IMG/VR virus record: IMGVR_UViG_3300010429_000409
Coordinates: 30,540 to 94,539 of that record
Length of the DNA stretch: 64,000 nt
DNA from: a virus
Lineage: Duplodnaviria; Caudoviricetes
Direction: 5' to 3' (one strand)
The position numbers and the translations under genes are program-made. Below are positions 7,469-35,142 of this stretch, piece after piece. Below the pieces are notes generated by a model. That model was not told where the DNA came from, searched no databases, and saw nothing but the letters and a program-made list of their open reading frames with translations. Positions within the stretch are counted from its first letter, which is position 1. Every line of letters begins with the position of its first letter.

Positions 7469-7690
7469 TCAGATCACACCTTTCCAAAAATCTTTTTCCA
7501 TTTTCTCTTTGAATCCATGCTCTCCACCCGGAGGCCCCATGGAGGCGCCGCATTCAGGGCACTTGAGTTGATTGCAAGGGTTGCCACGTGGATGTTCAAC
7601 AATTTGTCCACACTTTGGGCACTCGCATGTCGCTTTTCCGCCTTGCTGCTCAGCCCCTCCGCCTTGGCCTTGTTCCTTCTTGATTTCCAC
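7469..7690 (-). CDS. 73-aa Cys-rich (Zn-ribbon-like) protein with scaffold-type C-terminal tag
   Basis: GTG at 7690 with GAGGAG RBS just after the stop of the Pro-rich gene. MEIKKEQGQ...CECPKCGQIVEHPRGNPCNQLKCPECGASM...KMEKDFWKGVI*. Confidence 0.7.
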   Translation of the reverse strand: MEIKKEQGQGGGAEQQGGKATCECPKCGQIVEHPRGNPCNQLKCPECGASMGPPGGEHGFKEKMEKDFWKGVI

Positions 7691-7701
7691 TTTATCACTC
7701 C

Positions 7702-8049
7702 TCAATCCAATGGGCACGGAATCATGATTGGAAGAGTCGGCAATGCCGGAATCACAGGCAACGCCGGAGGCATTGGGATGGGCAAGGCCAACGGTGGCAA
7801 GGGTGGCAATGGCATCCCTGGAAGCATCATGGGGATGGGCGGCAACGCCGGAATCGCTGGCAGCACCGGGATGGCCGGTGGCATCGGGATGGGAAGTGCC
7901 AAGGGTGGCAACGGTGGCAATGGCATCCCTGGGAATGGAGGGATGGGTGGGACTGGCAGCACGGGCAGCACCGGCAGCACAGGAATGGCAGGAGGCACCG
8001 GAATAGGCAGCGCAAGCGGAGGCAACGGTGGTGTCAGGCACTTGCTCAT
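7702..8049 (-). CDS. Proline-rich repeat protein (115 aa)
   Basis: ATG overlaps the spike gene stop. PLPPLALPIP(V/M)PPA repeated three times. Ends CPLD. Confidence 0.6.
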   Translation of the reverse strand: MSKCLTPPLPPLALPIPVPPAIPVLPVLPVLPVPPIPPFPGMPLPPLPPLALPIPMPPAIPVLPAIPALPPIPMMLPGMPLPPLPPLALPIPMPPALPVIPALPTLPIMIPCPLD

Positions 8050-8921
8050 TCCAAAAACACCTTCTGGCTCAGGATCTGTGCTGTTGGGATTGGAGTGCCT
8101 GCGGTCGGAGGTCCGCTTGGCCCGGTTCCGGTCGGATGAATGTGGCCGTCATGCAGCATCACCATCTTGTTCCCAAGCACAGCCGGTTCCACCTCAGAGG
8201 CCAGGATCACTTTCCCGCCTTCCACCTTGGCTGTCTTGCAGCTGATGACCACATTGCTCTGCCCCAGCACCTGGATCAACCCATCCTTCATCTCGATGAT
8301 GCCGCCGCTCTTGTCAATCATCTTCAGCGAGGTATCATCAGCGCTGATGACGTTCCCGTTGGCCTCCATCAGCGTGAAGCACTTGTTTTTGGCATCCAAG
8401 GACAGCACTGTGCCCAACATGTTCGCCAACGACACAGAGCCCTCGTTGTCAAAGGCGATGAATGACCACTTGTCCTCACCCTCAGCGGTTTTCTTGTGCC
8501 AGCTCAAACGGACAGTTTCTTGCCCCTCGGTGTCATCAAACATCAGCATGTGCCCCATAGGGGTCATGAACCCGCGCCGCTTCCCGTAGTTGGTTTTGAG
8601 GTCATCAGGAATCGGCCGTGGCGCTGGTGTGGATTCATCTGTTCCACCCCACCAACGCTTCCCTCGCCAGTTGATGACCGGGTTGAACACTGCCGATTCC
8701 ATGAAGCTGACATCCCGGTCGGATGACGTCACAATCTCGATTTCCACAGCCTCATCGACATCTGGCACCAAGAAGAATCCCCACTCAAACACAGGCTCAA
8801 TCCAATGGCTGATTGGCTTCTTGTCAGTCCCAGTCCAATCGGGGCAGACCACCTTGATGCGGCCACGTTGCTCTGGGTCCTGGTTGTCCACAACCCTGGC
8901 GTTGTACCTCTGCGTGCCCAT
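8046..8921 (-). CDS. Baseplate central spike (P2 gpV / T4 gp5 OB-fold type)
   Basis: ARVVDNQDPEQRGRIKV OB-fold start, beta-helix region, and HDGHIHPTGTGPSGPP metal-binding tip. ATG 8921 overlaps the upstream TGA. Confidence 0.88.
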   Translation of the reverse strand: MGTQRYNARVVDNQDPEQRGRIKVVCPDWTGTDKKPISHWIEPVFEWGFFLVPDVDEAVEIEIVTSSDRDVSFMESAVFNPVINWRGKRWWGGTDESTPAPRPIPDDLKTNYGKRRGFMTPMGHMLMFDDTEGQETVRLSWHKKTAEGEDKWSFIAFDNEGSVSLANMLGTVLSLDAKNKCFTLMEANGNVISADDTSLKMIDKSGGIIEMKDGLIQVLGQSNVVISCKTAKVEGGKVILASEVEPAVLGNKMVMLHDGHIHPTGTGPSGPPTAGTPIPTAQILSQKVFLE

Positions 8922-10120: not shown

Positions 10121-10123
10121 CAG

Positions 10124-10891: not shown

Positions 10892-10897
10892 CTCTCA

Positions 10898-13321
10898 TCA
10901 CGGACGGGTCGGCAACGCGGCATACTCGGCCGCTGCTCTGCGTTGCCACCAGTTGGCCTTGAATCCGGCCCGCTCCTGGATTTCCTTGTTCTGGTTGGCA
11001 ACAGCAAAGGCCACCTCTTTGCCGTTCACACACATGGAGTTTTTGATTTCCAGCTGGCGCTTGTCCTCCAGCTTCACATCCACATTGACTTGGGGGCGCT
11101 TTTCACGCTTCCCGCCAACCTCCATCTCAGCTTCCCGGCTTGCTTCCTCTTGCAGCTTGACCCACTTTTCAGCCTCCGCCTTCAGTTCTTTCTGGTGCTG
11201 CTTGCTCTGCTCAGCAATCATGTTCCTGATGCGGTTGATGCGTCTGGCTTCCTTCCTGTATTCATCCTCGCCAATGATGCCGAGGTCCTGCTTGATTCCA
11301 ATCCACACAGACTCCACATCTGCAAAAAAGTCCTCAAGGCTGTCTCTGGACTCAATGATCCACTTGCCGATTGCATCAAAGAATCCGGCAATGACATTCA
11401 TCACCTTGAGGAAGGTGGAGCCAATGAACTTCCCAGCATCATGGAATCCGGCCTTCATGTGCCCAGTGGTTTCAGTTGTGTCTCTGAACAGCCAGCCAAA
11501 GAGTGAATCAAAAATCCTCCCGATGGCTGAGAAGATTTGCTTGATGGTCACCCACACCTGGCCCCACATGGACATGAAGCCTCTGATGAACTCCCCGATG
11601 GTGTCATCCAGGAAGGTGAAGATTTTGGCGAATACATCCATGATGCCTTCGCCTTCCTTCTTGGTTGCTATGAGCATCCCAATCAGCAACGCAAAAGCAA
11701 TCCCAAGCGGGGACAGGAAAGCAGCCTTGATGAACAGCGCCATCCCCTTCAAGAGGTGCAGGATTCCAACCAAAGCTGGCCACAGGATCTTCTTGGCAAT
11801 CAGCCCGATGATTGCCATGGCCCCGCCAACAGGAATCAAGATGGTGCTGAAGGCAGCAAACTTGGCCACAAACTCTGAAATCTTCCCGTACACCTTTGGG
11901 CCAAATGCACTCTTCAGGCTGTTCCCGAAGTTGGACACCGTCTCAATCAACCCAGCCCAGGCATCCTTCATCCACTTGGCAGCGTTCACCAGCCCCATGG
12001 CAATCGACGGGATGGCCTCGCCGTGCTTCTCAGCCAACTCGCCCAGAATCCGCTCCTGCTCGTTGGCATCCCCCTGGGCAGCTGACAATGCTCGGAAGGA
12101 AGCCACGATGGCCTCCACTCCCAAGAATGCGCTCTTGATCATGTCGCTCAAAGGCTCCAACACCGGAGCCATGAACAGCTTGGCGCCTTCCTCGATTCCA
12201 CCCTTGAGTCTGCCCCAATAGTCCAGGATGTTCTTGTGGCGCTCATCGGCCATCCGCTCCGCAGCGCCGGTCACGTCATCCAATGACTCCATCGTTTTTT
12301 GGTATGTCTCAGCCTGCCTGTTCAAGGCGTTGTACACGCGGGAACCTTTGATGCCAAACAACTCCTGGATCAATGCCGTCCGCTTGTACTGGTTGGGGAT
12401 GGCATCCAATCGCTTTTGAAACTGTCCAACAATCTTGTTCAGCGGCAGCATCTTTCCTGACGCATCCGTCATGGAAATGCCCCACTGCTGTATGGTCTGT
12501 TGGGCAATTGCGCTTGGCTTCATCAGCCGATTGAACATGTCACCCAGAGCCAGCCCGGCCCGCTTGCCACGCTCCCCTTCCCTCGACATGATGCCAAAGA
12601 TGGCCGCTGTATCCTCGACACTGAGCCCCAGGTCCCTGGCAACAACTCCGCCCTCCTTGAAAGTCGTGGCCAGTTCCTTCATGTTGATTCCGGACTGCTG
12701 CGAGACAACGGTGAAAACATCGACCGTCTTGGACAGATCGCTGAAATCCATCCCCATCCTGCGTACCACAGGCATCAGGACATCAGCCGCCTCGCCCATG
12801 TCGATGGCCATGGCAGCTGCAAAGTTTGAAACACCTCCGATGCCCTTCATGATCTCTTCATATCGGGCTCCGGCCACAGCCATCCGGTTCATTCCCCGGA
12901 TTGCCTCTTCAGTTCCTTGCCAGCCGGAGGTGCCGATGTCTTTGGCACGCTCTGTGATGACCTTCAACTGCTCGGCCGTGAGGTTGGCTTCAGCCGATAG
13001 GTTGGACAGGCTTTTTTGCTCTTGCGCTGCGCCCTTCAGCGCCTTCATCATGCCATATGCCATGGGCAAGGCGGCAACAAACAACCCCATGGCAGCTGCT
13101 TTGAGCTTCCCTAGCCCAAGCCCGATTGCAGCAAATGCAGGGCCAAAATTGGTGATGAGGTGGGCCTTGACTCTCATGGCAGCAGCGCCAACCGTGGTTG
13201 CCATGGTCTGCGCTGCTACAGAAAGCCTCCGGAATCCTGCTTGAGCGGTCTGGAGCCCCACCATTGCTGGGTTGGAGTTGAAGGTGAGCACCCCGCCAAG
13301 TCCGATGCTCTCAAAAGCCAT
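10898..13321 (-). CDS. Tail tape measure protein (TP901-type core)
   Basis: 807-aa helical Ala/Gly-rich protein with G.RGKRAG.AL, D.SGKMLPL..IV and ELFG motifs; follows the chaperone. Confidence 0.9.
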   Translation of the reverse strand: MAFESIGLGGVLTFNSNPAMVGLQTAQAGFRRLSVAAQTMATTVGAAAMRVKAHLITNFGPAFAAIGLGLGKLKAAAMGLFVAALPMAYGMMKALKGAAQEQKSLSNLSAEANLTAEQLKVITERAKDIGTSGWQGTEEAIRGMNRMAVAGARYEEIMKGIGGVSNFAAAMAIDMGEAADVLMPVVRRMGMDFSDLSKTVDVFTVVSQQSGINMKELATTFKEGGVVARDLGLSVEDTAAIFGIMSREGERGKRAGLALGDMFNRLMKPSAIAQQTIQQWGISMTDASGKMLPLNKIVGQFQKRLDAIPNQYKRTALIQELFGIKGSRVYNALNRQAETYQKTMESLDDVTGAAERMADERHKNILDYWGRLKGGIEEGAKLFMAPVLEPLSDMIKSAFLGVEAIVASFRALSAAQGDANEQERILGELAEKHGEAIPSIAMGLVNAAKWMKDAWAGLIETVSNFGNSLKSAFGPKVYGKISEFVAKFAAFSTILIPVGGAMAIIGLIAKKILWPALVGILHLLKGMALFIKAAFLSPLGIAFALLIGMLIATKKEGEGIMDVFAKIFTFLDDTIGEFIRGFMSMWGQVWVTIKQIFSAIGRIFDSLFGWLFRDTTETTGHMKAGFHDAGKFIGSTFLKVMNVIAGFFDAIGKWIIESRDSLEDFFADVESVWIGIKQDLGIIGEDEYRKEARRINRIRNMIAEQSKQHQKELKAEAEKWVKLQEEASREAEMEVGGKREKRPQVNVDVKLEDKRQLEIKNSMCVNGKEVAFAVANQNKEIQERAGFKANWWQRRAAAEYAALPTRP

Positions 13322-13330
13322 TGCCCAGCC

Positions 13331-14331: not shown

Positions 14332-14411
14332 GGTTCACCTCCAGTTGGCACAACCTCCGGCTGCGCCTTGTTAGGTCCAACCGTTCAGGAAGGCTTGACA
14401 CCTCCGCCAGG

Positions 14412-14883: not shown

Positions 14884-17163
14884 TCACGCCACCGACTCAA
14901 AGATGCCCATCTTGCCGATCATGATGTTGAACCGCTCCACGGTGTCGGCCAGACGCAGGCTGATCTTGGCGTTCATGTCGCCAGCCGCCCGAGTGGCGTC
15001 GGTGTTGATCTCGCTGTCCACCTTGATGATGGCAGCATCCTCGAACGTCTTGCCACGGATGGCCCGCTTGCGCCACTCGGGCAGGAAGAAATCCTTGAGC
15101 GAGGTGACAGCCTTCTTGTCGGTGATGGGGTCATTCAACTGGAAGATGATCCAGTCAAAGTTTTCCTGGAGCACGTGCTCATAGTAGCTCATCAACTCCC
15201 GCTGGTGCTTGAACTTCCAGTTGGAGTCCACCCACAGGGTCCGATCACCCCAGATGATGAAGTTGCCCTTGACTTTCTTCACCACGTTGATGCCCAGCGG
15301 GTTCAGGTATTCCTCGTTGAGGATGGCATCCCCGGTCGGCAGCTTCAACACCTTGGGCAGGGTGGCAGTGATGCCTGCCTCGGCCATGTGGTAGCCCAGG
15401 TTGTCCTGAGCCATCCGCGCCTCCCGGCCGTGGATCTGGCCGGTGAGGGTGACCAGCTTGAGCTTGCCGGTGGTGCTGGCCTCGGGGTCAGCCACATAGC
15501 CATAGGACGGGAACGCCACCACAGCGAAGTCATTGCGCCCCAGGGTGTCGTTGATGTAGGCGTCCGCATCCGCCTCCGTCACCTTGTTGTCGGGCACCTC
15601 GTACCTGTACTGGTGGTTTTTGCCCTCAGCATAGGCAGCGCCCGCCTTCTGGACAGCGGTGGAGGTCACACCCGGGGTGGCAAACTTGATCAGCCCCATG
15701 TTCTTGCCAGCGATGCGGTTGAACGGGCTGTTGGACGTGTCCCAGGCCTGGCTGTTGTAGTCGCTGTCCAAGATGCTGGCATGGCCATCCCGGCCTCCGG
15801 CCATCTCCAGCGGGGCAACCACCATGAACTGATCATCGGCAGCCGCCACGCTGGTCATGTCGGAACCATCCGCCACGGTGATGGTCTTGTGGTCGTTGTC
15901 CACGATGCGATAGAAGGTGCGTGCCGAATTGGCCTTGTCGGGGTACACCACGCCATCGATCAGAGAATCCGGGGTGAGTGGCTTGTACACCAGCTTCATC
16001 ACATCCCCGGCCTCCAACACGGTGGTGCCGTTGGTGATGGTAAACGGAGGGGTCCACTTGTTGTTGGGAGCGAACAGCGTGCCCACGGTGACCTCGCCCA
16101 GGGCACCGTACTTGTCCGACACAGCATCACCCAAGGTGGGCGCGGTCATGGTGATGGTGATGATCTGCTCATCATGGTTGTCGGTGGTGGTGCCCAGCGC
16201 CACGGTCGGATCGGCATCCCCGGTCGTCACGCTGAACTCGTGGATGACAGGCGTCAGCACGGTGGCGGTGACCGTTCCGATCTTGCCCCACACATTGGCC
16301 GGGCGAACATCGGCCGCATGGGCGCCAGTCCAGAGGTCCACAGCCTCCACCTCATCGTTGTTGCCATCGTTGTTGATGACGTTCACCCAGTACCTGGGAT
16401 CAGTCGGGTTGGTGGACAGGTTGGGCCACTTGTTCGCCAACTCGCCGTTGACGTACACGTACAACCCAAACTCCGTGGTGGGCTTGTCCTCGCCGTCCCG
16501 CACCTCATAGGACAGCGCCTTGTCGCCGTTCTCCAGGTACAGATAGAACCGGAGATTGGTGGGATCGGCCGCAGCCGTCCAATCATCCTTCATGGTGGCA
16601 TCGGCCGCCACGGTGATGACTCCGGCAACGGTGTTGCTCACCACCTCATACCGCTTGTTGGACACGGCATCCAACTCCACCCAACCGCCCTTCAGCTCAT
16701 CCTTCTTGAGGGTGAGGCCCGTGGTGAGGGTGACGTTGGTGATGTCGCCCGAGGCAGACACATCGCCCGTCCGCTTCTGCGCCGCGCCGCCCCACCTGCC
16801 GCCGTTCTTGGCCTTGAGGGTGCCCATGGGCGTCTTGATGATCTTGCGGCAGTACAGGGTGGCCTGGGCCTGCAGCTCATCCCCATCGGTGACTCGCACC
16901 AGGAAGATTCCGCCTGCGCCAAGGGCGCCATCATAGAAGTCGATGGCGGCATCAGGCACCTGGGACTCGGGGATGTATCCGCCGCACTTCTTGATGAAGG
17001 CGCTCTTGGAAGAGCACTGGATCAACTCCCCAACAGGCCCACGCTCCAGCATGCCAGCATAGCCAACCCAACCAAGCGCACCTGGCGTGATGGGCTTGTC
17101 ACCTTCCAGCTCCGTGACGCTCACACCAGCCCCGCGCACTGGTCCATATCTCCGCTGTGCCAT
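14884..17163 (-). CDS. Contractile tail sheath protein
   Basis: GVSVTEL N-terminus; ERGPVG; LNPLGINVV...IIWGDRTL...W..F..ND C-terminal sheath motifs. Confidence 0.93.
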   Translation of the reverse strand: MAQRRYGPVRGAGVSVTELEGDKPITPGALGWVGYAGMLERGPVGELIQCSSKSAFIKKCGGYIPESQVPDAAIDFYDGALGAGGIFLVRVTDGDELQAQATLYCRKIIKTPMGTLKAKNGGRWGGAAQKRTGDVSASGDITNVTLTTGLTLKKDELKGGWVELDAVSNKRYEVVSNTVAGVITVAADATMKDDWTAAADPTNLRFYLYLENGDKALSYEVRDGEDKPTTEFGLYVYVNGELANKWPNLSTNPTDPRYWVNVINNDGNNDEVEAVDLWTGAHAADVRPANVWGKIGTVTATVLTPVIHEFSVTTGDADPTVALGTTTDNHDEQIITITMTAPTLGDAVSDKYGALGEVTVGTLFAPNNKWTPPFTITNGTTVLEAGDVMKLVYKPLTPDSLIDGVVYPDKANSARTFYRIVDNDHKTITVADGSDMTSVAAADDQFMVVAPLEMAGGRDGHASILDSDYNSQAWDTSNSPFNRIAGKNMGLIKFATPGVTSTAVQKAGAAYAEGKNHQYRYEVPDNKVTEADADAYINDTLGRNDFAVVAFPSYGYVADPEASTTGKLKLVTLTGQIHGREARMAQDNLGYHMAEAGITATLPKVLKLPTGDAILNEEYLNPLGINVVKKVKGNFIIWGDRTLWVDSNWKFKHQRELMSYYEHVLQENFDWIIFQLNDPITDKKAVTSLKDFFLPEWRKRAIRGKTFEDAAIIKVDSEINTDATRAAGDMNAKISLRLADTVERFNIMIGKMGIFESVA

Positions 17164-20558: not shown

Positions 20559-20945
20559 CTACAGGATGCCGCCCCAAAAACCCTTCTTCACCTCGGCCTT
20601 GACCTTGGGAACATACACCGTCCTACGCTCCACCTCGGTGGGGTCGCCCTTGAAGGTGTAGGCTCCGGTGCCCGTGTCGCGCTTGAACTGCAACTCGTAC
20701 ACCACAGGCTCCGGATAGGGCGAGTCATCATCCATGGGGCCACGGACGTTCCGCATCACCTCCACCATGATCTTGTCGGTGAACACCTGGGCCGGATAGG
20801 CCATGTCCTTGTCCTTGCTGAACAGCCCTTTCTCAGCCAGGTGGCTGAGGCAAGGCTCTTTCAGGCTCTTGACGAACCCATCCAGGTCCTCACCTTCCAT
20901 GAACGGCAGCGCCGCCTTCTCAACCATCACTTGGGTCTGTGCCAT
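20559..20945 (-). CDS. Hypothetical head-associated protein with scaffold-type C-terminal tag
   Basis: ATG 20945 with AGGAGG RBS; ends KAEVKKGFWGGIL*. Confidence 0.65.
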   Translation of the reverse strand: MAQTQVMVEKAALPFMEGEDLDGFVKSLKEPCLSHLAEKGLFSKDKDMAYPAQVFTDKIMVEVMRNVRGPMDDDSPYPEPVVYELQFKRDTGTGAYTFKGDPTEVERRTVYVPKVKAEVKKGFWGGIL

Positions 20946-21271: not shown

Positions 21272-21771
21272 CAGCCCACCTTCTCAAACAGCCCATCGCT
21301 CATCTCACAGAACTTGCGCAGCCCTTCAGGCGTCACATTCTCAGGGTCCCAATCGCTGCCATCCAGATACGGCTGGACAAACCTTGCCATCAACTCAGAA
21401 CACACCTGGGCCTTGGTCGATGACAAGGGCTTTTTCACTTTCATCTTGAGCCAACGCCATGCGATGATGAACCACGCTGTCCAAAACAGGTCCACGTAGT
21501 CATAGGCGTTGCCAAAGTATTCCCGGATTGCTTCGCATCCCTTCTGCGGGTCTGCTTTCAGCCTGTATTCACAGACCACATTGTGCTTTGCCTTGTGGCT
21601 GGGGACCTTCCGAACGCCACCAATCGTTGCCTCTGCAACCCAGCGCCCGCCCCACAGCTTTGAATCATATTCCAGCATGGCATGGCTGACTGTCCCATTG
21701 GTCAGCCATCTGATGACCCGTCCAAACCAGGTCTTTGATGCCGTGAAAATGATTCGCACATCCCTGGACAT
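21271..21771 (-). CDS. Permuted papain-like (NlpC/P60, YiiX/YebB-like) hydrolase
   Basis: His before Cys: SHAML...EA..GGVR...GNAYDY...CSELMA...TPEGL. Confidence 0.8.
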   Translation of the reverse strand: MSRDVRIIFTASKTWFGRVIRWLTNGTVSHAMLEYDSKLWGGRWVAEATIGGVRKVPSHKAKHNVVCEYRLKADPQKGCEAIREYFGNAYDYVDLFWTAWFIIAWRWLKMKVKKPLSSTKAQVCSELMARFVQPYLDGSDWDPENVTPEGLRKFCEMSDGLFEKVG

Positions 21772-22829
21772 CACGCAACTTCCTCGCTGTAGCTTGTACA
21801 ATAGAAAGTGGCCGTGCCATATTCACCTTCATATGGCACATCACCTTCCAACCACACCCTGATTTCCAATCCAATGGATGATAACAACTCTTTGACCGTT
21901 GCGTACTTGAACGGGAAGGTGATGCGATCCTGTGCGAATCCTCGGGCGCCACCCATCGCAGGGATCAACGGATATGCCCCATTGGCTTCCTCGATGTAGT
22001 TGTCCAATGTTTTGTAAGTGGTTGGGGCTGCAACCGGAACCTTGTTGGGAGGGTCTGCCGGGTTGTATGCCCATGGTTGAAAGTGCGTGCTGGCCTTGAG
22101 CAGAATGTCCTTGCTGAACTGCACTTCGCTGTATTCCACCCACAGCCGCTTTCCCGCCTCCGGCCTGATGATGAACAGGCTTCCAGCCGCCCGGCTGTAA
22201 CTGGCTGTCACTGTGCGTCCGGCAACAGAAGCAAAGAAAGTCACCCGGCCGGTCTTGTAGTCAATCTGGAACAATCCGCCTTCTGTGGCCCACGGTGCGC
22301 GCTCTGTCTTTACCACGCCATCCACCTTCACAACAGGCAGATAGCCAGCAGAGATCAAATCCTCACGATAGACCTTGCCGTGTTTCATGTCAATCCAATT
22401 TGGAAAGGCAGAAACAAACGTCAACCCATCACCGCTGTCCACCAGATTTTCATTCTCCACTCGAACAGACTGGGTGTACCATGTGGTTGGGTCGCACCAG
22501 TTGTGCGTTACCACGACCAGTCCAGAACCAGCCTTGCGAGGCTCATGGCTGACCCGGAGCCGCCCATCATCGTCCTTTTCGGGCTGCACTCCTTGGTAGC
22601 CTCGAATCAGATCAATGGCCTCTCCAGCAGCATAGTCTCGCACCCCATCATTGAGCTGGTAGTTGGCCTCTCCCTGCCCAAGCAAAAGCAATAGGGTCTC
22701 AGATGTGGCCAGCTCATAGTTCGCAAAGCACACTGAGAGATCTGCTTGGTCATTCGCTGGGATCTCCACGGTGCGCCGCCCGCACGTCACCTCACAGGTT
22801 TCAGCCGTCTTGTTCTTCAAGATTCTCAT
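21771..22829 (-). CDS. Hypothetical virion protein
   Basis: Coupled ORF in the late cluster; IDYKTGRVTF..V.G.TVTASY beta-domain. Confidence 0.5.
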   Translation of the reverse strand: MRILKNKTAETCEVTCGRRTVEIPANDQADLSVCFANYELATSETLLLLLGQGEANYQLNDGVRDYAAGEAIDLIRGYQGVQPEKDDDGRLRVSHEPRKAGSGLVVVTHNWCDPTTWYTQSVRVENENLVDSGDGLTFVSAFPNWIDMKHGKVYREDLISAGYLPVVKVDGVVKTERAPWATEGGLFQIDYKTGRVTFFASVAGRTVTASYSRAAGSLFIIRPEAGKRLWVEYSEVQFSKDILLKASTHFQPWAYNPADPPNKVPVAAPTTYKTLDNYIEEANGAYPLIPAMGGARGFAQDRITFPFKYATVKELLSSIGLEIRVWLEGDVPYEGEYGTATFYCTSYSEEVA

Positions 22830-24016
22830 GTGGGCCTCGCTGAACAATAGAAGAATCCGTCAATCAACAGATTCTTCTGCCCGCCAATTCCGGTGGCGCT
22901 CACGTACACGGACACGGTGCCACTGACCGTTGGGATGTTGGTCGTGCTGGTCGCCCGGAGTATGCCATCAATGTAGGCAGTGACCTCGGTTGGGCTGGAC
23001 CGCACCTCCAGCACATGCCAGGCGTTGTCCAAAGCGATGCCAGTGTCCACGTTGGTCGAGACACCGCCAGACCGTGTTTCTAGGACCCAGTTGCCACCCC
23101 AGTTGGCCCGCAGGAACACGTAGTTGTTGGCGTCGGCGTACTGGACCTCAAACTCGATGTGGCCGTTGCTGGTCCCGTCGTACTTGGCCCGCATCGCAAT
23201 GCGGGGGTTCAAGTTCAACGCCTGCCAGGCAACCCCGCCTCCGAAGTACAGTTCAGCGTAACGTCCTGCCGCATTCCCGGCCCGGACAAGTACCTGCCCA
23301 CCAGGAAGCAATCCAACCTCCACCAGGCTTCCGGTGCCGCTCACTGAAGTGGTCCACATGTCATCCAAGGTTGGTGGGAAAAATTCGTCATAAAACCGAA
23401 CTTCACCCGCAAAATAATCAGGCTCCGCTGCCAACAGCTTATTGACCAACACCCGCTTCTTGGCGTTGCTGGCCTCGCTGTCTTCAATCACCAGCAGGTC
23501 ATGGCGATGAATCGCTGTCTTTTCTGTGATGGTGCTGATCTCAGCTGCCACGTTCTTGTGGATGGCGTTGGCATCGGTTCCACCACCTCCAGGCAAATTC
23601 CCAACCTGGATTTTCTTCTTGGCACCTGCCGCTGCACTGTCCTCGATGAGCACCAGATCCGCACTCGCCGGAGTCGTTTTCTCAGTGAAGGTGGCGAAGT
23701 CCCCCGCTGCCCGCTTCAACTGGGCGTCATCGGTCACGTTGCCCAGTCCAACTTGGGAGCTTGCCCCGATGGTCCCGCTGTGCGCCGAACTTCCATGCAC
23801 TGCTACCGCCGACACCACCGCATCCCAGGCCGTGTTCCCCGCATCCCGCTTGTAGAGTTTGACTTCATCATCCCGCCAGAACATTTCATTGGCAGCAGGT
23901 GAATCCGGGAAGCTGGTGCCGTGTGGAATGGCCAGCTTGCCTGTGCCCTCGAACATCCACACACCCGTGATGACTTTGTTTGCGCTGTCATCAATGATGA
24001 CTTGGACTATGCTCAT
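22826..24016 (-). CDS. Fibre-like virion protein with C-terminal lectin-like domain
   Basis: QVGLGNVTDDAQLKR fibre motif, duplicated TEKT...DL.(L/V)IEDS.A..AKK unit, and WHVLEV...AYIDG C-terminal jelly roll. Confidence 0.6.
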   Translation of the reverse strand: MSIVQVIIDDSANKVITGVWMFEGTGKLAIPHGTSFPDSPAANEMFWRDDEVKLYKRDAGNTAWDAVVSAVAVHGSSAHSGTIGASSQVGLGNVTDDAQLKRAAGDFATFTEKTTPASADLVLIEDSAAAGAKKKIQVGNLPGGGGTDANAIHKNVAAEISTITEKTAIHRHDLLVIEDSEASNAKKRVLVNKLLAAEPDYFAGEVRFYDEFFPPTLDDMWTTSVSGTGSLVEVGLLPGGQVLVRAGNAAGRYAELYFGGGVAWQALNLNPRIAMRAKYDGTSNGHIEFEVQYADANNYVFLRANWGGNWVLETRSGGVSTNVDTGIALDNAWHVLEVRSSPTEVTAYIDGILRATSTTNIPTVSGTVSVYVSATGIGGQKNLLIDGFFYCSARPT

Positions 24017-27900: not shown

Positions 27901-29097
27901 TCAGCTGATGCTGGTGCCGATGTTCTTGCCCTTCACCACCGCATCCAGCTCCTCGAAGTTGAAGTCCAGCTTCACGGTGATGGCGTACTGGTTGACACCC
28001 TTGAAGATGTCCCGATCCTTCTCGATGCGGATGTCACGCCCGATGCCCACGATGTAGTTCTGCTGGTGGGTGAGCAGGATCTGCGGGTTGGAGGTGTAGG
28101 TCACCTTCACGGTGGCCCCATCCCCGATGGTCGAGCCGCTGCGCCGCTTGATCTTGCCGGTGGCGGCGGTCAGCTCATAGTCCGTGGATGCGCTGTAGGC
28201 GTCCAGCGGGGTGCCACTCAGGGTGGCCGGGGTGACCACCACGTTGCTCACCGGAGCGTACAGCAGCTGGGTGTCGGTGGTGCCGTTCAGCACCACGTGC
28301 TCGGTGACCGGCGGCATCAGGTCCAGCAGGGGCAACTCCACCGGGGTGATGCCGAAGGGCTTGTGCATGGAACCACCAGCCGCCTCATCGCCCAGCACGG
28401 TGGTCCGGCTGGCCAGCTTCTCCAGATACAGCTGGTACACATCGCTGGAGAGATAGAACCGGAGATCACCCTTGTTGCGCCGGAACTTGGTGGGCAGCGC
28501 CCGCAGCATGGCGCTGAAGGTGCTCAGGCTGATGTTGGCCGCCAGCTGGTCCACCACGTGCGCGCCGTCCGCCAGCTTCATCCAGCCATTGGTCAGGGCC
28601 AGGTAGGTGTCCTTGACGTACTTGGTGGCGCTGCCGCCGTCCACCAGGTCGCCCTCCAGGATGGCCGGGCCGAGGGTGTTGCCGTTGAGGCCCAGCTCCT
28701 CCATGTCGTTGGCCAGCTGCGTGGCCATCATCTTGATGATGTGGTCCTCCACGCTGGCACCCTCGATGTTCACGTCCATGAAGGTGTCGCTGATCTCGAA
28801 CGGCACCATGACCTCCCTGGGCTGCAGGGTGATCTTGCTGGTGCTGATGCCCCTGCGCACGGAGGGGGCAGACGCCTCCGCCTTGGGCACCGCCACGCGC
28901 CGCCCGATGCCGATCTTGTCGATCTCCAGCTGCTCGTTGCGGAAGCGCACGATGCGGGCGTTGTTCTTCAGCACGGACTCGTCCACCACGTAGTCGATGA
29001 ACTTGTCGGACTGGGCCGGGTTCAGCTTGCCTGCGGCCGCCAGCGCGTCCGTGGCGATGATGGCCTTCTGGATCAGTTCCTGATTGGGAATGCTCAT
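27901..29097 (-). CDS. Major capsid protein (HK97 fold, PBSX XkdG-like) with internal beta-domain insertion
   Basis: GKLNPAQSDKFID...EIDKIGIGRR...NIEG...LANDMEELGLNGN...LLTHQQNYIVGIGRDIRIE. ATG 29097 with AGGAGGAA RBS. Confidence 0.93.
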   Translation of the reverse strand: MSIPNQELIQKAIIATDALAAAGKLNPAQSDKFIDYVVDESVLKNNARIVRFRNEQLEIDKIGIGRRVAVPKAEASAPSVRRGISTSKITLQPREVMVPFEISDTFMDVNIEGASVEDHIIKMMATQLANDMEELGLNGNTLGPAILEGDLVDGGSATKYVKDTYLALTNGWMKLADGAHVVDQLAANISLSTFSAMLRALPTKFRRNKGDLRFYLSSDVYQLYLEKLASRTTVLGDEAAGGSMHKPFGITPVELPLLDLMPPVTEHVVLNGTTDTQLLYAPVSNVVVTPATLSGTPLDAYSASTDYELTAATGKIKRRSGSTIGDGATVKVTYTSNPQILLTHQQNYIVGIGRDIRIEKDRDIFKGVNQYAITVKLDFNFEELDAVVKGKNIGTSIS

Positions 29098-29156
29098 CTG
29101 TTCCTCCTGTGGGTTTCTTTCGTCCCTGGGTTCTTTGGTCACGCCATCTGACACAG

Positions 29157-30023
29157 CTAGATCACGCCGTGCCAAAAACTCTTCTGCACGTTCTTGTTCT
29201 TGTCGTCGGTGCCGCCACTCCCCTCGATGGACTGGGAAGGCACACGCGCCTTCTCAATCACCTCCAACCGCCCCATCAGCGCGTCCAGATTCTTCTGGAC
29301 AGCGGTGATCTGCTGCCGCAGCTCATCGGCCGAGGCATCGACCTTCGGAGCCTCCACCTTGGGCTCCGCCTCGGGCGCGGGCTTGGTCACATCCTCGGCC
29401 TTGGTCACGGACACAGGGGCAGGCCCGGCCGGAGGCTGGATGCCACTGGACAGGTCGGGCTTGAAGGCGCCGCCCATCTTGTCGTGAACTTCCTTCAGCA
29501 CGTTGGTATCCACCTCGCCCAGCAGGTCCGCCAGGCTCAGAATCACATCCTTGAGCGCCTGGGTCCGGCTGCCGGTGAACACCTTGGCCTTGCGCAACTC
29601 CGCAAGAGTGCCGTTCACCTTGACATCGCCCTCCGGGGTGACGCTCATGGTGTAGGCATCCGTCTTGGCAACGGGCTCCGCCTCGGGCTTGGGAGCCTCG
29701 GGCGCGGGCTCCGGCTTGGCGTCGGGCACAGGCGCCTCGGGCTTGGGAGCCTCGGGCGCGGGCTCCGGCTTGGCCTCCACCTCGGGCTTGGTCACATCAC
29801 CTTCCGGCTTGCCAGCCTCGGGCTCCGCCTTCTTCACAGCCTCTGGCGCCGTGGCCGCGCTCTTCACTTCCTTGGGAGCTGCCATGGGTTCCTCCTCCAT
29901 TCGTTTGACGATCAAAAACTTGCGTTGAATTGCCGGTTTGTCAACCAGCGACACCTCATTGACCTCCAGGTCAACGATGCGTCTCACACCCTTCATTTCC
30001 TCTTCACTCTTTTTTTGGCTCAT
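29157..30023 (-). CDS. Capsid scaffolding protein
   Basis: Between protease and capsid; disordered PEAPK linker, coiled coil, C-terminal VQKSFWHGVI*. Confidence 0.8.
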   Translation of the reverse strand: MSQKKSEEEMKGVRRIVDLEVNEVSLVDKPAIQRKFLIVKRMEEEPMAAPKEVKSAATAPEAVKKAEPEAGKPEGDVTKPEVEAKPEPAPEAPKPEAPVPDAKPEPAPEAPKPEAEPVAKTDAYTMSVTPEGDVKVNGTLAELRKAKVFTGSRTQALKDVILSLADLLGEVDTNVLKEVHDKMGGAFKPDLSSGIQPPAGPAPVSVTKAEDVTKPAPEAEPKVEAPKVDASADELRQQITAVQKNLDALMGRLEVIEKARVPSQSIEGSGGTDDKNKNVQKSFWHGVI

Positions 30024-30034
30024 AGCAACTCCAG

Positions 30035-30067
30035 ATTTTAGTCCAATGGGGTGGCCAAGGGAAATTT
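30035..30067 (-). promoter_or_regulatory. Candidate late promoter upstream of scaffold/capsid
   Basis: AAATTT-N21-TAAAAT containing TGGCCACC; same layout at 37616-37648. Confidence 0.35.
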
Positions 30068-30644
30068 ACACCAATGTGGCCATCCCACCGATGCTGTATC
30101 CGGTGATCTCCCCTGCCTTGATTTTCTTCCACACACTCTCATCCAGCACTTTGACCACCATGAGCCACGAACCCTTCTTGACCGGCTGGTCCTGCACGGT
30201 CATGTCAACCAGAGAAATGTAGCTTTGCGCCAGTTCAACTCCGATGTTCCCAAACAAGCGGTGCATCAAGCCCAGCTTGGTTTCACGATTATAGCTGGCC
30301 AGGAAGGCATGGGCAGCTTCCTCAATCACATCTGAGTTGATGGTGTCGTTTTGAGCATCCACTTCATCTGGTTCTAAAACAACACCATAAACAAGCCGTT
30401 TTTCTGAATCAATCTTGGCAATAGCTACGTTGCATTTCACCTCCGCGTTGTAGCTCTTGGGTTGCACTTCGCCCTGGGAATCGTGAACGCTGTCCATGTT
30501 GACACCCTCTTGTTTCTTTGGCGCAGCACCCGCTGGTGCTTCGCTTTCAGACTTGGTCACCACAACACGCACACGGTGCAACTGCGTCGCACGCTCCGTT
30601 TTGGAAATTGTGCGTCTTGGCAACCGTTCTCTTTTCATCACCAT
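30066..30644 (-). CDS. Prohead serine protease, XkdF-like
   Basis: EKRLVYGVVLEPDEVDAQND...AAHAFL...LMH...KGSWL...WKKIKAGEITGYSIGG. Start uncertain. Confidence 0.9.
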   Translation of the reverse strand: MVMKRERLPRRTISKTERATQLHRVRVVVTKSESEAPAGAAPKKQEGVNMDSVHDSQGEVQPKSYNAEVKCNVAIAKIDSEKRLVYGVVLEPDEVDAQNDTINSDVIEEAAHAFLASYNRETKLGLMHRLFGNIGVELAQSYISLVDMTVQDQPVKKGSWLMVVKVLDESVWKKIKAGEITGYSIGGMATLV

Positions 30645-30655
30645 GGCGACACCCT

Positions 30656-31693
30656 TCAAACCATGTCCACAGTACACCGACAATTGAGGTGGAATGGAGG
30701 CATGCTGAACCCCTCTGCCATCAGCGCATCGGAATCACTTGCCCCTGAATCCCCAGCCTTTGGCGAAATGTCCAACAGCTTTTCCGGATTCAACCACGGG
30801 TGGATGTCCGCCACGTCATCAGGCGTCTTGGCATCAACCTCTTCCTCCACAGCCTGAATCCCTTTTGAAACAGAGAATGTCTTTCCATCCATGTGCGAAC
30901 ACACCTCGCACGTCCGTTCATCAATCGGATTCACGATGACATACTGTTGGATGTTCAATTCTTCAAAGCTACGCAGTTGCCCCTGGACTCTGCTCACAGT
31001 CACCGCATTGTTCACAACGCCTTCCAGGTAGGATGACGCTGTGCCAACATACCCTTCAGGGCTCTCAACACGCTCCATGACCCGTTCCAGCTTTTCGCGC
31101 AGCTTGTCTCTGCCCATCTCGCCAGCGCCTCCGGCCTCAAGAACTTCTTTGGATGCGCCCCTGATGGCCCGCTGCACCCGGGTCCCATACAGATCGCCAA
31201 TCCAAAAAGTCTCGTGCCTTCTCAGCGCCTCAATGGCCTTCTTGTCTTTCACGCCCAAAACGGGTTTGGCTGTGGCTTTGGCCTTCTGCACATCTTCTTT
31301 TTCAGCAGCTGCTTCCTCCTGGTTGTACTGCAGACTGCGCTTCATCTTCCCCGAGGCTTTCTTGAACCCAGCATCCCGGGCCAGCTTGTAGGTTTGCTCA
31401 ACCCCTTCCAAATAGGTGTCCAGCACTTCATCTGACCAATCGCCAAAGATGCCATCAACAACTTCCATGATGTCGCCCAGGCTGGCATCCTTTTCAAACA
31501 TCGGGAGGGTCTTATCAACAGCTTTTTTGACCCTGGCCATCCATGTGCCACGCATCAGCTTCCGCAGCCTGTTCTCAATCGCAGCAATCCTTGTGATCTC
31601 ATCACTGCGCGCTGCCTTCAAGAGCAAGTCCTCAACACGCTCCAGGCGCTTGTAGATGGCAACCTTGCTGCCGCTGTGGCCCTGGCAGGTCAT
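30656..31693 (-). CDS. Head morphogenesis protein (SPP1 gp7 / Mu gpF-like)
   Basis: DERTCEVCSHMDGK...PPFHLNCRC. Confidence 0.88.
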   Translation of the reverse strand: MTCQGHSGSKVAIYKRLERVEDLLLKAARSDEITRIAAIENRLRKLMRGTWMARVKKAVDKTLPMFEKDASLGDIMEVVDGIFGDWSDEVLDTYLEGVEQTYKLARDAGFKKASGKMKRSLQYNQEEAAAEKEDVQKAKATAKPVLGVKDKKAIEALRRHETFWIGDLYGTRVQRAIRGASKEVLEAGGAGEMGRDKLREKLERVMERVESPEGYVGTASSYLEGVVNNAVTVSRVQGQLRSFEELNIQQYVIVNPIDERTCEVCSHMDGKTFSVSKGIQAVEEEVDAKTPDDVADIHPWLNPEKLLDISPKAGDSGASDSDALMAEGFSMPPFHLNCRCTVDMV

Positions 31694-33396
31694 TTCTTCC
31701 CGCCCTCCGCCTCACCACCCGCTCCGCCTTCCAGCTCATTGATGAGGCCCAGACGCAAATCAATCAATCGCTGGACAGCATCAAATGGGTTGGTGATGGC
31801 ATGCTTCATGGCGGTCACCTGTTGTCCAACCTCATTCGGCATGGCCATGTTCTTCACAGCCTCTGCCATGGTCATGGAGAATGGGATGTCCAACGGCACA
31901 GAGGCATCCATGGATGGGAGGTCCTGCCCCAAAACAGCTTCCAGGATCATCCTGGCTGTGCGCGGAGTCATGCCACCAGACCGCTCCGCACCTGACATGA
32001 TGCTGATGAGGCTTGTGTTGTCCGTGACGTTGGGCGAATTGGACTTGTATTTGTGGTACACGATGCCCATTTCAGGGAACAAGCGCCGATTCATCCAGGC
32101 ATCAAACTCATCCCGCTCCGGAGCAAACACCTGCTCATCTGCTAGCACCCGGCTGGACTCAGCTGTTGCCCGGGTGTAGTCATCGCTCCGACCCACAAAG
32201 ATTGGAGGCAGACGGAATGCCCGCCTGATCTTGTCTTGGTTGTTCTGCGAATACTGTTGGAACAACGCATCCGTGTGCTGAAGCGCCACCAGCGGTTTGA
32301 CATCGATCTTGACCTGGCCACCATCCTCGCCTTCATAGGATGATTCGCCCTCCAAGATCAAAAACTTGCTGTAATTGTCAGAGCCTTGGATCTGGCTTTC
32401 AACAAACTCCTTGATGCGGTCGATTGAAGCTTGGGTCAGCATCCCATTCGACACGGCAATCATCATCGACGGGATGTTGTTGTTCTTGAACGTGGTGAAG
32501 TTGATTTCCTCGGATGCCCGATCACCAAAGATGGACAGCAGATTCCCGATGTACCTGGGGACACCATATGGCGTCCTGGGAGCGTAGTTGCGAAAGTGCA
32601 CCAGCTCAGTCGCACGCTTGGTCACATCCAAAGGCGCTTGCGCCAATTCGCCTGTGGTGCAATCATACACCCTTGGGTCACCAAATTCCTTGTACCACCG
32701 CTTGGCACTGGAACCCACCCACCCAAGGCTTCTCAGCTGCGTCTGCTTGGATTGGACATAGCGCCGAAATCTCTTCCACGTTTTGACCTTGACCACCTTG
32801 ATGGAACCATCCTGCTGCAGCTCCAGCAAGGGCACCTCAACCTCAAAAGGCTGTTCCTCCACAGGTGTCAGGCGCACTTGATAGGATGGGACGTGATTCA
32901 ACCCTTGGATTTTGCCATCCAACCCTCGGACAACTTCCATGCACCCATTCCCATTCAACTCCAAATCCTTCCTGATCTTCCTCCGGGTCATGGTGAAGCT
33001 GTCTTCAATTGATGCATATGCAAAAAAGTTTTCCAGCCGGATGCGCTCTTGATTCACTTCATTCTTCAGCCCATCCGGAGGATTCTTGTCCATGTCAACA
33101 CGCGGGATGAACCTGTGTCCAAACCCGTCAATGTTGATTTCCATGGCCTCGATGCACTGATTCAACTCGGTGCTGTGCTCATTCAGCATCGACAACACAA
33201 GCAGATCAAACGGTGGCTCAACAATTTCACCCTTGGCCACCATCGCACCCAAATCATCTGTGGTGGAACCAGCCGGTTTGACCTCCCCGCCCTGCGCATC
33301 CTGTTTGGTGATTGGAAGCACCAACACACGGACACGGCCCATAGCCTTCTGGTTCCCGGTTGCCGCCTTCTTGTTTGCTTCGCCCAAGCCTTCCAT
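31690..33396 (-). CDS. Portal protein (PBSX-family-like)
   Basis: VEPPFD..L, DLELNGNG.MEV.R, ELVHF......YGVPRYI, FKNNNIP, AFRLPPIFVGRSDDYTRATA. Confidence 0.92.
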   Translation of the reverse strand: MEGLGEANKKAATGNQKAMGRVRVLVLPITKQDAQGGEVKPAGSTTDDLGAMVAKGEIVEPPFDLLVLSMLNEHSTELNQCIEAMEINIDGFGHRFIPRVDMDKNPPDGLKNEVNQERIRLENFFAYASIEDSFTMTRRKIRKDLELNGNGCMEVVRGLDGKIQGLNHVPSYQVRLTPVEEQPFEVEVPLLELQQDGSIKVVKVKTWKRFRRYVQSKQTQLRSLGWVGSSAKRWYKEFGDPRVYDCTTGELAQAPLDVTKRATELVHFRNYAPRTPYGVPRYIGNLLSIFGDRASEEINFTTFKNNNIPSMMIAVSNGMLTQASIDRIKEFVESQIQGSDNYSKFLILEGESSYEGEDGGQVKIDVKPLVALQHTDALFQQYSQNNQDKIRRAFRLPPIFVGRSDDYTRATAESSRVLADEQVFAPERDEFDAWMNRRLFPEMGIVYHKYKSNSPNVTDNTSLISIMSGAERSGGMTPRTARMILEAVLGQDLPSMDASVPLDIPFSMTMAEAVKNMAMPNEVGQQVTAMKHAITNPFDAVQRLIDLRLGLINELEGGAGGEAEGGKK

Positions 33397-33406
33397 GTGC
33401 CACCTC

Positions 33407-34873
33407 TCAGATCAATCCTGGCTCTTTTTCTCTGCGGCGCCGCTTCCCCTTGGATCTGGAAGCCCGGATGGCGTTGTCCAACGCATCAAACAGGTCCTTG
33501 AATCGACCATTCGGGAACCCAACCAATTGGTCAATCAGCCCTTCATTCCCCGGCAGGAAGAACATGCGCTTGTCCTCGAACAAAGATGTCAATTTCCAAG
33601 CCCGGGTGATTTTGTCCTCTTGGGTGTTGATTGGAAGCACCCTGATGTCCTTGTTCCGGTCCTTCAACTCCTGGGCCAATGCCAACTGATATGCATTCGT
33701 CTCAACACCCATGAAGATGGGGTCATGACGCTTGAACCAATCTTCAAGAAAGTGCACCTGTTGTTTGAATCGGAGGTGGCCGGCAAACGATTCCAAGATG
33801 TAATAATTGAGCTGTTGTGTGACTGCCAGGGCCACAGCGGCAAACTGGTCAGCAGAATCCTTCTGTGAGATTGCCAGGTCAACGCCCACGTACAATTTCA
33901 CTCCGGACGGAACATCGGCAGCAACAGCAGGTTGGCAGTCATCGTATTGGAACACCTCGCCCTTCATGGCCTCTGTGTCGCATTGATACTGGGCATTGAA
34001 AATGATGGTCCCTGACTTCTTGCGTTTTTCAATGAACCACTCAGGCGCATATTTCTCAGGCCATGGACTTCGCCCTTGGTCATCCAGCGCCCTGACAATG
34101 TTGTGGTCGTTGGCCAATTCATTTTTGATCAGATGGCCATACAGGTCCTCATAGTGATAGCGCGTCCCAAGTCGGTGGTGCTCCCCTCTGAATTCAACTT
34201 CAGGGTCCGGAGGCTCCAAGCATGGGTCCAGCGTTTGATAATACCACGTCCGGACACGGTCACGCATGTGCTTGGTCCGGCTGTTCTCTTCATCCACCAA
34301 GTCATCTGAGATGATGACATCATAGTGGCGAGAAACAATTGTGGTCTCAACACCCACGCATGTGATGCTTGCTTCCTTGGTGTGCTTCCTCCGGGGCAGT
34401 ATCTCGATTTCACGGTTGTCCCATTTGGTCACTTTCCGTGGATCGTAGTATTCCCCAAAGATTTCAATCAGCTTGTAGTTGCTTTCAAAATGTCCTTTGA
34501 TTTCCTTCAGGAATCCTTCTGCGTTGGCTGAGGTCTTGCTGGCGATCAAGATGCGCAAGTCAGGATTCTTCAAGAGCATGTGGATGGACTTTGCAACGGT
34601 GCACAGAGTGCTTTTCCCCGCGCCTCGGAACACCAACTGCAGGTTGTCACGATGCTCGAATTGATACTTGAGCAAGGCAAGATGGAATGGCCTCACCTGG
34701 TATCCCAAAACGTATTGGGCCAGCAGGTCCACCCGGTTGTTTTCGATGATTTGGCGGCGCAACCATTCTGCCTTCATCTTGTGATAGTGCGCCAAATACT
34801 CTATGAGTTCAGACCGCTCTGCTTCAGCGAGCATGTTTGGATTGGCTGAGATGGTCTGAACTTTGGGCGCCAT
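33407..34873 (-). CDS. terL: Terminase large subunit
   Basis: Walker A RGAGKST, Walker B IISDDL, GTRYH..DLYG, nuclease GVDLA...DLFDAL. ATG 34873 overlaps the upstream TGA. Confidence 0.93.
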   Translation of the reverse strand: MAPKVQTISANPNMLAEAERSELIEYLAHYHKMKAEWLRRQIIENNRVDLLAQYVLGYQVRPFHLALLKYQFEHRDNLQLVFRGAGKSTLCTVAKSIHMLLKNPDLRILIASKTSANAEGFLKEIKGHFESNYKLIEIFGEYYDPRKVTKWDNREIEILPRRKHTKEASITCVGVETTIVSRHYDVIISDDLVDEENSRTKHMRDRVRTWYYQTLDPCLEPPDPEVEFRGEHHRLGTRYHYEDLYGHLIKNELANDHNIVRALDDQGRSPWPEKYAPEWFIEKRKKSGTIIFNAQYQCDTEAMKGEVFQYDDCQPAVAADVPSGVKLYVGVDLAISQKDSADQFAAVALAVTQQLNYYILESFAGHLRFKQQVHFLEDWFKRHDPIFMGVETNAYQLALAQELKDRNKDIRVLPINTQEDKITRAWKLTSLFEDKRMFFLPGNEGLIDQLVGFPNGRFKDLFDALDNAIRASRSKGKRRRREKEPGLI

Positions 34874-35142
34874 CAGATCACACCTTCCCAAAATCCCTTC
34901 TTGACTTCGCCCGCCTCTTCAAGGTCTGCCTTGAGATCATGATCCTTGAGCCACTTTTTGGCCTCGGCCGGTGTCCACTTTTTCTTGTCAAAGCGCAACG
35001 ATTGCAGGCCGGTTGTGCCATCTTCCCTGTATCCAATGATGGCGTCAATGCCATCAGGGTATCCCTTTGGGTGGATGCGAACAAACCGCTCAAACTGTTC
35101 TGGGTCCAACTGCCGGGCGGCATGTTCGCTGGGATACGGCAT
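34873..35142 (-). CDS. 89-aa protein with scaffold-type C-terminal tag
   Basis: ATG 35142 with GAGG; MPYPSEHAARQLDP...LQSLRFDKKKWTPAEAKKWLKDH...EVKKGFWEGVI*. Confidence 0.7.
   Translation of the reverse strand: MPYPSEHAARQLDPEQFERFVRIHPKGYPDGIDAIIGYREDGTTGLQSLRFDKKKWTPAEAKKWLKDHDLKADLEEAGEVKKGFWEGVI

Follow-up and report, generated by a model that had tools for sequence, protein, structure and literature searches.

A C-terminal peptide shared by the scaffolding protein and three small proteins of a myovirus-type phage: a candidate prohead address label

We analyzed the right-hand 64 kb (64,000 nucleotides [nt], here called the window; coordinates without a locus name refer to it) of one viral contig, 94,539 bp long and 56% G+C, IMG/VR record IMGVR_UViG_3300010429_000409 from a tailed phage. 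On the minus strand, which holds a complete myovirus-type late region, the scaffolding protein and three small proteins end in the same short peptide. This shared tail is non-random, strictly C-terminal, conserved among relatives, and matched in class to the resident scaffold across phage lineages. The initial annotation of the window had proposed that the phage reuses the coat-binding tail of its scaffold as a modular address label, loading small cargo proteins into the prohead. Comparative evidence from conservation, from tail swapping between lineages, and from fusions to proteases speaks strongly for that proposal, with coat binding and packaging entering it by analogy. We consider it probable that the tail is the coat-docking peptide of the scaffold, reused as a prohead address label.

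Four otherwise unrelated proteins end in the same peptide

The tail (also called the tag below) is carried by four proteins:

29157-30023, minus strand: scaffolding protein, 288 amino acids (aa), between the XkdF protease gene and the capsid gene; tag VQKSFWHGVI at nt 29160-29189
34873-35142, minus strand: 89-aa protein P0002; tag VKKGFWEGVI; the TGA stop overlaps the ATG of the terminase gene
20559-20945, minus strand: 128-aa protein P0003; tag VKKGFWGGIL; upstream of the head-tail adaptor gene
7469-7690, minus strand: 73-aa Zn-ribbon protein P0004; tag MEKDFWKGVI; within the baseplate gene block

By translation, each of these open reading frames (ORFs) ends in the peptide listed, directly followed by the stop codon, exactly as the initial annotation had read them, and all four ends fit K-x-F-W-x-G-[VI]-[IL]-stop. 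When the window and the whole 94,539-bp genome were scanned in six frames, FW.G followed by two hydrophobic residues and a stop appeared at exactly these four places; one internal match, FWVGVV, lies in hydrophobic sequence at 51140-51157. The earlier statement that no early gene ends in this way was confirmed by the same scan, which gave no match to the tail pattern in early genes or in the 30.5 kb outside the window. As a control, we drew random 6-residue tails from each of 811 ORFs in 2000 trials. A single match arose in 6 of the 2000, which places the chance expectation at approximately 0.003 against the four tails observed; the initial annotation had suggested this genome-wide comparison. 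Trimmed of the last 10 residues, the four proteins have no similarity to one another (best BLASTP E = 0.09-6), in keeping with the earlier description of them as unrelated apart from the tail.

The four tagged genes lie apart from one another across 27 kb, and their tail DNA differs at synonymous positions, which indicates that the tails are not recent copies of one another. These differences bear on the idea that the shared tail has no function and arose by chance or through recent recombination. In its favor, the 89-aa and 73-aa genes look alike in their tail DNA. However, such an origin fits poorly with the synonymous differences, with the low chance expectation, with retention of the tail in homologues at 27-68% identity, and with the existence of three tail classes that each match their own scaffold, so we regard it as hardly credible.

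The scaffold consists of an N-terminal RRIVDLxVxEVSLVDKPA, a low-complexity region rich in Pro, Glu, Ala, and Lys, a coiled coil, a Gly/Ser-rich linker, and the tag; it aligns with residues 259-400 of 402 of phrog_3017, a protease-scaffold fusion family. P0002 is made up of a conserved domain of approximately 75 aa (four strands and one helix), a short linker, and the tag, while P0003 has one helix and a four-stranded sheet (a cystatin/NTF2-like roll) ahead of its tag. P0004 combines a Gly-rich N-terminus, CxCPxCG...CPECG, a linker, and the tag. AlphaFold models of P0002 and P0003 give their domains predicted local distance difference test (pLDDT) scores of 85 and 82, respectively, and the last nine residues are predicted to be disordered, with no helix. 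The start of P0002 is supported by MPYP..., which opens every P0002 homologue; an AGGAGG ribosome-binding site precedes the P0003 gene; and the 73-aa GTG gene model of P0004 agrees with a 64%-identical homologue that starts at the same point.

The tail is conserved among relatives

The nearest isolated phages, Streptomyces phage Yaboi and its kin, are approximately 30% identical to the window's phage in the capsid protein; approximately 100 metagenomic viral contigs are much closer, at 40-68% identity. We looked for the tag in the cultured relatives and rejected the only candidate, a loose internal K-W-G-G-H-F-L in a protease-scaffold fusion. Across 96 related loci, a W-x-[GNSA]-h-h tail (h, hydrophobic) ends 68 of the 7141 plus-strand ORFs, plus being the structural strand, compared to 4 of the 9129 minus-strand ORFs. 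At the DNA level, a scan that took in five full-length relatives with the pattern for W-x-G-[VIM]-[ILFV]-stop (TGGNNNGGNRTNHTNTRR) returned nine matches, all on the structural strand, and none with the reversed control pattern.

Among the 14 relatives found via the capsid gene (L001-L014), the scaffold ends in the motif in 12; the two exceptions are L011, with the variant G-W-N-G-I-L, and L013, with S-L-F-S-N-I-I-P-I. For the three small proteins, we searched for homologues with the tag removed from the query. All 12 P0002 homologues in relatives end in W-x-[GN/S]-h-h, and the Trp is invariant in the 16 sequences of the P0002 alignment, where the linker before the tail varies from approximately 4 to 21 residues. 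The P0003 family is present in many relatives and has the same kind of anatomy, with a domain, a linker of 0 to approximately 80 aa, and a tag with invariant Trp; the tag is kept in 2 of 3 homologues in the related loci. In database homologues of P0003, 40 of 46 carry the tag and the remaining 6 a near variant, such as S-L-F-A-G-V-I. Close homologues of P0004 are tagged in both cases found (L045 and P0125; one of one within the related loci), and most of its stand-alone homologues have no tail at all. The L045 homologue, at 64% identity, ends in KKGFWDGIV and is encoded near the terminase gene, not in the baseplate block.

The tail is always the very last element of the chain and follows a linker whose length differs between proteins. 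Tagged proteins share one plan, in which a folded domain is joined through a flexible spacer, free in length, to a terminal peptide that stays constant. The pattern of sequence conservation indicates that the tail is kept under selection.

Tail class follows the scaffold of the same genome

The conserved 75-aa domain of P0002 recurs in other phage lineages with different tails or with none. Members of the family have three tail classes, FWxGVI, IRKxAGR, and NNFIP, and each class is like the scaffold tail of the same genome. The pairs found for the second and third classes are listed below; the scaffold-position gene is the one directly upstream of the capsid gene in L098, L101, and L103 and the gene of a 389-aa protein between the portal and capsid genes in L104.

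L098 (siphovirus, PF05065 capsid): scaffold-position gene, NDYIRIMAGRS; P0002 homologue, NTAIRKMAGRE
L101 (siphovirus, PF05065 capsid): scaffold-position gene, NTFIRQQAGRG; P0002 homologue, NANIRKAAGH
L103 (siphovirus, PF05065 capsid): scaffold-position gene, N-A-Y-I-R-K-A-A-G-V; P0002 homologue, V-N-K-E-I-R, cut short
L104 (different terminase and capsid type): scaffold-position gene, YEDGKKNDFIPA (Y-E-D-G-K-K-N-D-F-I-P-A); P0002 homologue, YEKPENNNFIP

We ranked the tails blindly, taking all ORFs of 50 aa or more from both strands and ordering them by similarity to the tail of the small protein. The scaffold-position gene ranked first of 136 ORFs in L098, first of 139 in L101, and first of 79 in L104, and in the genome of the window the top 3 of 1038 ORFs were the other three tagged proteins. 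Two of three tail-less P0002 homologues that we examined, those of L105 and L116, lie outside the structural module. The head modules of L098, L101, and L103 are complete and contain no match to the S78, ClpP, XkdF, Mu-I, or DUF2213 protease families. Because scaffold and P0002 homologue share a tail in these siphovirus loci without a recognizable prohead protease, the tail appears to be independent of the protease.

Several observations weigh against the reading of the tail as an address label set by the resident scaffold. Some members of the P0002 family are tail-less, one of them (in L117) adjoining a scaffold gene with an unrelated tail, and the P0003 homologue in L046 lacks the tag. L103 fails the tail ranking, its P0002 tail being truncated. 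The scaffolds of L098, L101, L103, and L104 were assigned by position, size, and composition (coiled-coil-like in the siphoviruses); none of these genes received a PHROG name, and their best match, to PF06810 with E = 0.0013, is below the cutoff. L098, L101, and L103 share one tail class, which reduces the comparison to three independent classes rather than five. Within the FW clade, scaffold and cargo tails show no residue-by-residue co-variation (permutation p = 0.19). The homologue comparison proposed in the initial annotation thus came out in part: the motif is kept and tail class follows its own scaffold across lineages, but co-variation at the level of residues was not found. In addition, no solved structure related to the capsid protein was found by sequence, and we infer from analogy both the capsid protein as binding partner and the packaging of the tagged proteins.

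Two tagged domains are fused to prohead proteases elsewhere, and a methyltransferase bears the tail

In other phages, the P0002 domain occurs in fusion proteins, mostly as their N-terminal end, with all of the major kinds of prohead protease, namely the XkdF (PF14550), S78 (PF04586), ClpP (PF00574), Mu-I (PF10123), and DUF2213 (PF09979) families, and it is also inserted between the protease and capsid domains of giant fusion proteins. In a structural comparison with viral models, the N-terminal domains of "prohead proteases" matched the P0002 domain best (E = 4e-8). The search with the Zn-ribbon of P0004 returned mostly the generic ribbon module, including cellular PDZ/NifX proteins, and one homologue, P0165, is a Zn-ribbon fused to an XkdF protease. 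These fusions indicate that at least two of the three modules sit inside proheads in other phages. To judge from the domain architectures, the same modules are covalently fused to the protease elsewhere and appear here as free-standing proteins with the scaffold tail instead.

Two further architectures were seen in these searches. P0062 (421 aa) is an S78 prohead protease with an N-terminal P0002 domain that ends in R-R-L-A-V-M-R-R-R-A-G-S-V-E, resembling the IRKxAGR class, so that domain, protease, and tail are in one chain. P0126-P0136 are large cellular proteins with both PDZ and NifX-type (PF02579) domains, and each repeats the P0004-type Zn-ribbon three to five times.

Fold comparisons gave less specific results. 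The P0002 domain is weakly BRX-like: the Pfam match to BRX (PF08381) scores 20 bits with a gathering cutoff of 24.5, the PDB profile match has E = 0.02, and Foldseek aligns it with 6l0v at TMt 0.67 and E = 0.13. P0003 has no match in Pfam, PHROG, or Atlas. The best fold match of the P0003 model is cystatin (Z = 7.7, rmsd 2.9 over 77 residues), tied with the NTF2 and VirB8 folds, and this cystatin-like match appears weak and not specific; there are also weak BFVD matches to "prohead protease" proteins.

An enzyme carries the tail in one relative. L013:870-1754 encodes an intact D12-class N6-adenine (Dam-type) DNA methyltransferase (PF02086, 62.8 bits, DPPY present) that ends in the clade tail K-K-S-V-S-W-K-G-I-I. 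In the neighboring P0003-family gene, L013:304-870, a CxxC...CxxC zinc ribbon is inserted in the linker.

Given the same docking, the tagged proteins may equally be assembly cofactors, such as a tether or brake for the protease. Stated in full, this alternative makes them auxiliary or competing scaffolds that tune shell geometry, or adaptors or regulators of the protease, that are degraded or expelled at maturation; P0002, for example, might anchor the protease at the shell and the cystatin-like P0003 might keep it in check. By Rosetta-stone logic, fusion of the P0002 domain and the Zn-ribbon to prohead proteases suggests an interaction with the protease, and the window's own XkdF protease has no tag. 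The cystatin match of P0003, its "prohead protease" matches in BFVD, and the likeness of P0002 to BRX, a peptide-binding fold, point the same way, as does the precedent of the satellite protein CpmB (see below). However, the fold matches are below the level of specificity, P0002 homologues with tails occur in siphovirus head modules without a recognizable protease, and a tagged DNA methyltransferase is hard to fit to such a role. We consider this alternative unlikely on the whole, yet the strongest of those that we weighed against the address-label reading.

The clade protease is untagged, and no signal for tag removal was found

The tag is absent from every prohead protease in the clade. An alternative built on this enzyme is that the tail does not bind the coat and is instead a recognition signal for the protease, a C-terminal degron on the scaffold and on proteins destroyed at maturation. 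The scaffolds of protease-bearing phages are normally degraded, and the tagged domains are fused to proteases in other phages, as such a signal might lead one to expect. It is less easily reconciled with the tail-less protease of the clade itself or with L098, L101, and L103, where scaffold and P0002 homologue share a tail in head modules without a recognized protease. A degron also needs no extreme C-terminal position on a variable linker, and the scaffold C-terminus is the coat-binding element in the systems resolved so far (PMC5644958). We judge this alternative improbable.

The initial annotation had also suggested that the hydrophobic-x-K before the tag may be where a protease cuts the tag off, leaving the cargo inside, perhaps for ejection. 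The tail alignment contains no conserved cut-site motif before the tag. The Lys is well kept in scaffolds and is shifted or absent in cargo tails, and tails are shared also where no protease is recognizable. The proposed site finds no support in these results, nor do tag removal and cargo ejection.

In many relatives, among them L002, L005, L014, L063, L079, and L081, the XkdF domain is the C-terminal part of giant MuF-type ORFs of 865 to approximately 1770 aa; in the window, the MuF-like and protease genes are separate and overlap by 28 nt. From their gene structure, the fusions appear to represent a different, portal-linked route of the protease into the head. They also bear on a further alternative, in which the partner of the tail is the portal, or some other part of the unique vertex, so that the scaffold and a few copies of each small protein are placed at the site where assembly starts. 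Scaffolds of several phages also contact portals, and P0002 is translationally coupled to the terminase gene. Nevertheless, structurally resolved scaffold C-termini contact coat protein, and we found no positive evidence for a portal contact, which makes this possibility slightly more remote than the degron.

Three observations concern the scaffold gene and its neighbor. All scaffolds of the clade open with (R)R-x-V-D-L-x-V-x-E-V-S-L-V-D-x-P-A-N (29925-30000, scaffold residues approximately 12-40), and this conserved EVSLVD motif is possibly a contact with the protease. Long tagged ORFs in relatives were considered as protease-scaffold fusions and rejected, being longer scaffolds that open with the same motif. 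The protease and scaffold ORFs share a reading frame, with one TAA and 14 sense codons between them (30024-30068); stop-codon readthrough into a protease-scaffold protein was rejected as a conserved mechanism, given that the genes are in frame in only 7 of 25 relatives, which is the level expected by chance.

Comparison with known systems

In P22 and in herpesviruses, the C-terminus of the scaffold is the coat-binding element, and to our knowledge the extreme C-terminus of the scaffold binds coat in every system studied. In T4, the capsid targeting sequence (CTS) of IPI-III and Alt is N-terminal, targets these proteins to the scaffolding core, and is removed at defined sites by the S77 protease gp21. 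The likeness is that a short terminal peptide sends unrelated proteins to the prohead interior. The differences are that the tag described here is strictly C-terminal, that the protease is of XkdF type, and that no cut site is evident.

Other systems use a C-terminal element to bring proteins that are not part of the shell into the prohead. The HK97 protease gp4 reportedly has a C-terminal capsid-targeting tail (Duda, Oh and Hendrix, 2013), and in lambda (C/Nu3) and the herpesviruses (UL26/UL26.5), nested in-frame protease and scaffold genes share a C-terminus. Here, in contrast, the protease has neither a targeting tail like that of gp4 nor the scaffold's tag, and the genes that carry the tag are distinct, unrelated, and scattered across 27 kb.

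Encapsulins are DNA-free compartments of cells that have no portal, scaffold, or protease and load cargo by a peptide with a GSL-type consensus that differs between shell lineages. As in the window, a short C-terminal peptide on a flexible linker is borne by unrelated cargo and is thought to dock inside an HK97-type shell. Unlike an encapsulin system, the phage has a portal, terminase, sheath, and tape measure, its tag is also the tail of its own scaffold, and the GSL-type consensus is unrelated to the tag.

A close parallel comes from phage 80α, in which the last 16 residues of the scaffold bind a cleft at the coat N-arm and are mimicked by CpmB of the satellite SaPI1 (Dearborn et al. 2017, PMC5644958). 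Binding of this amphipathic "helix-and-hook" tail, which has an RIIK motif, was demonstrated by cryo-electron microscopy and genetics (PMC5644958). In both cases, a non-scaffold protein ends in the extreme C-terminal peptide of a scaffold, and tails act as interchangeable modules, which for CpmB address the same site on the coat interior. However, the 80α mimic comes from a satellite and redirects capsid size, whereas here a phage tags three to four unrelated proteins of its own. The motif here is W-x-G-h-h, for which the prediction is a short, flexibly linked peptide with no RIIK helix, and its binding would follow from the analogy. Because motifs and contexts differ, the phage tag seems to work like the encapsulin and 80α/CpmB systems without being a member of either.

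In the Dar system of phage P1, the DarB methyltransferase/helicase is packed in the head, and loading depends on ordered recruitment via Hdf and DarA (PMC12810830). The tagged Dam-type enzyme of L013 suggests a similar use of a head-loaded methyltransferase, although loading in P1 involves no shared terminal peptide. In the literature that we searched, which covered few subscription papers, we found no description of this tail or of a set of scaffold-tail mimics encoded by a phage.

A model for the shared tail and its implications

In the address-label reading, the last 8-10 residues, K-x-[FLIM]-W-x-[GN]-hydrophobic-hydrophobic-COOH, would serve the scaffold to dock on the inside of the assembling shell. 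By analogy with 80α, P22, herpesviruses, and encapsulins, the docking partner would most likely be the N-arm region of the capsid protein. The three small proteins, each with a copy of the tail on a flexible linker, would be recruited into the prohead during assembly, and further proteins of relatives that bear the same peptide, including the DNA adenine methyltransferase, may follow the same path.

What is new here is the strictly C-terminal Trp peptide in a myovirus clade with XkdF protease, the one cargo family wearing three lineage-matched tails, and the equivalence of modules that are fused to a protease and modules that are free but tagged. We tentatively put forward a broader proposition, which is appreciably less secure than the address-label reading itself. 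Tailed phages may quite generally use a copy of the resident scaffold's tail as a "zip code", tuned to each lineage, that loads accessory domains and enzymes such as DNA methyltransferases into proheads without gene fusion. It would then be a viral counterpart, and possibly the evolutionary source, of the cargo-loading peptides of encapsulins, and it would offer a rule by which proteins of the head interior could be recognized from sequence alone.

Should the tail prove to be a docking peptide, a search for ORFs that end like the scaffold could predict which proteins of an uncultured phage lie inside the head. The reading would also connect three fields that are mostly studied separately, those of scaffold-coat recognition, of capsid targeting as in T4, and of cargo loading in encapsulins, and it would mean that a phage can shift a module between being fused to the protease and being free but tagged. 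It would further offer a natural tag of very few residues with which foreign proteins could be loaded into HK97-type shells. The tagged methyltransferase of L013 hints that such tags could carry counter-defense enzymes.

Organization of the late region

In order along the minus strand, the landmarks of the late region other than the tagged genes are:

33407-34891, minus strand: large terminase, first in the late-gene order
31690-33396, minus strand: portal, after the large terminase
30656-31693, minus strand: MuF-like minor head protein, after the portal
30066-30683, minus strand: XkdF-type prohead protease (PF14550), untagged, C-terminus GYSIGGMATLV
27901-29094, minus strand: major capsid protein, 397 aa from Met28 (phrog_1623, E = 4.5e-77)
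Downstream of the capsid gene, minus strand: neck proteins, then sheath (14884-17163), tape measure (10898-13321), and baseplate genes

The start of the capsid gene was corrected. The listed ORF begins at a TTG 27 codons early (29094-29175), and alignment with relatives places the start at Met28 (29094). With this start, the capsid gene does not overlap the stop or the gene of the scaffold. The N-terminal region of the capsid protein is highly conserved in an alignment with 11 relatives.

Other genes drew our attention in passing. A 176-aa protein is encoded at 21271-21801 (minus strand), within the neck region and directly upstream of the P0003 gene. It matches phrog_1128 (crotonase/ClpP-like, E = 1.8e-15), has no Pfam match, and may represent a second protein of protease type. 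A 396-aa protein at 22826-24016 (minus strand), encoded between the head and neck genes, has weak C-terminal lectin/SO2946-like matches (PF22237, PF13385). In two of the siphovirus loci, the MuF-like minor head proteins contain an intein (PF14890; L098:1406-3997 and L103:3871-6378).

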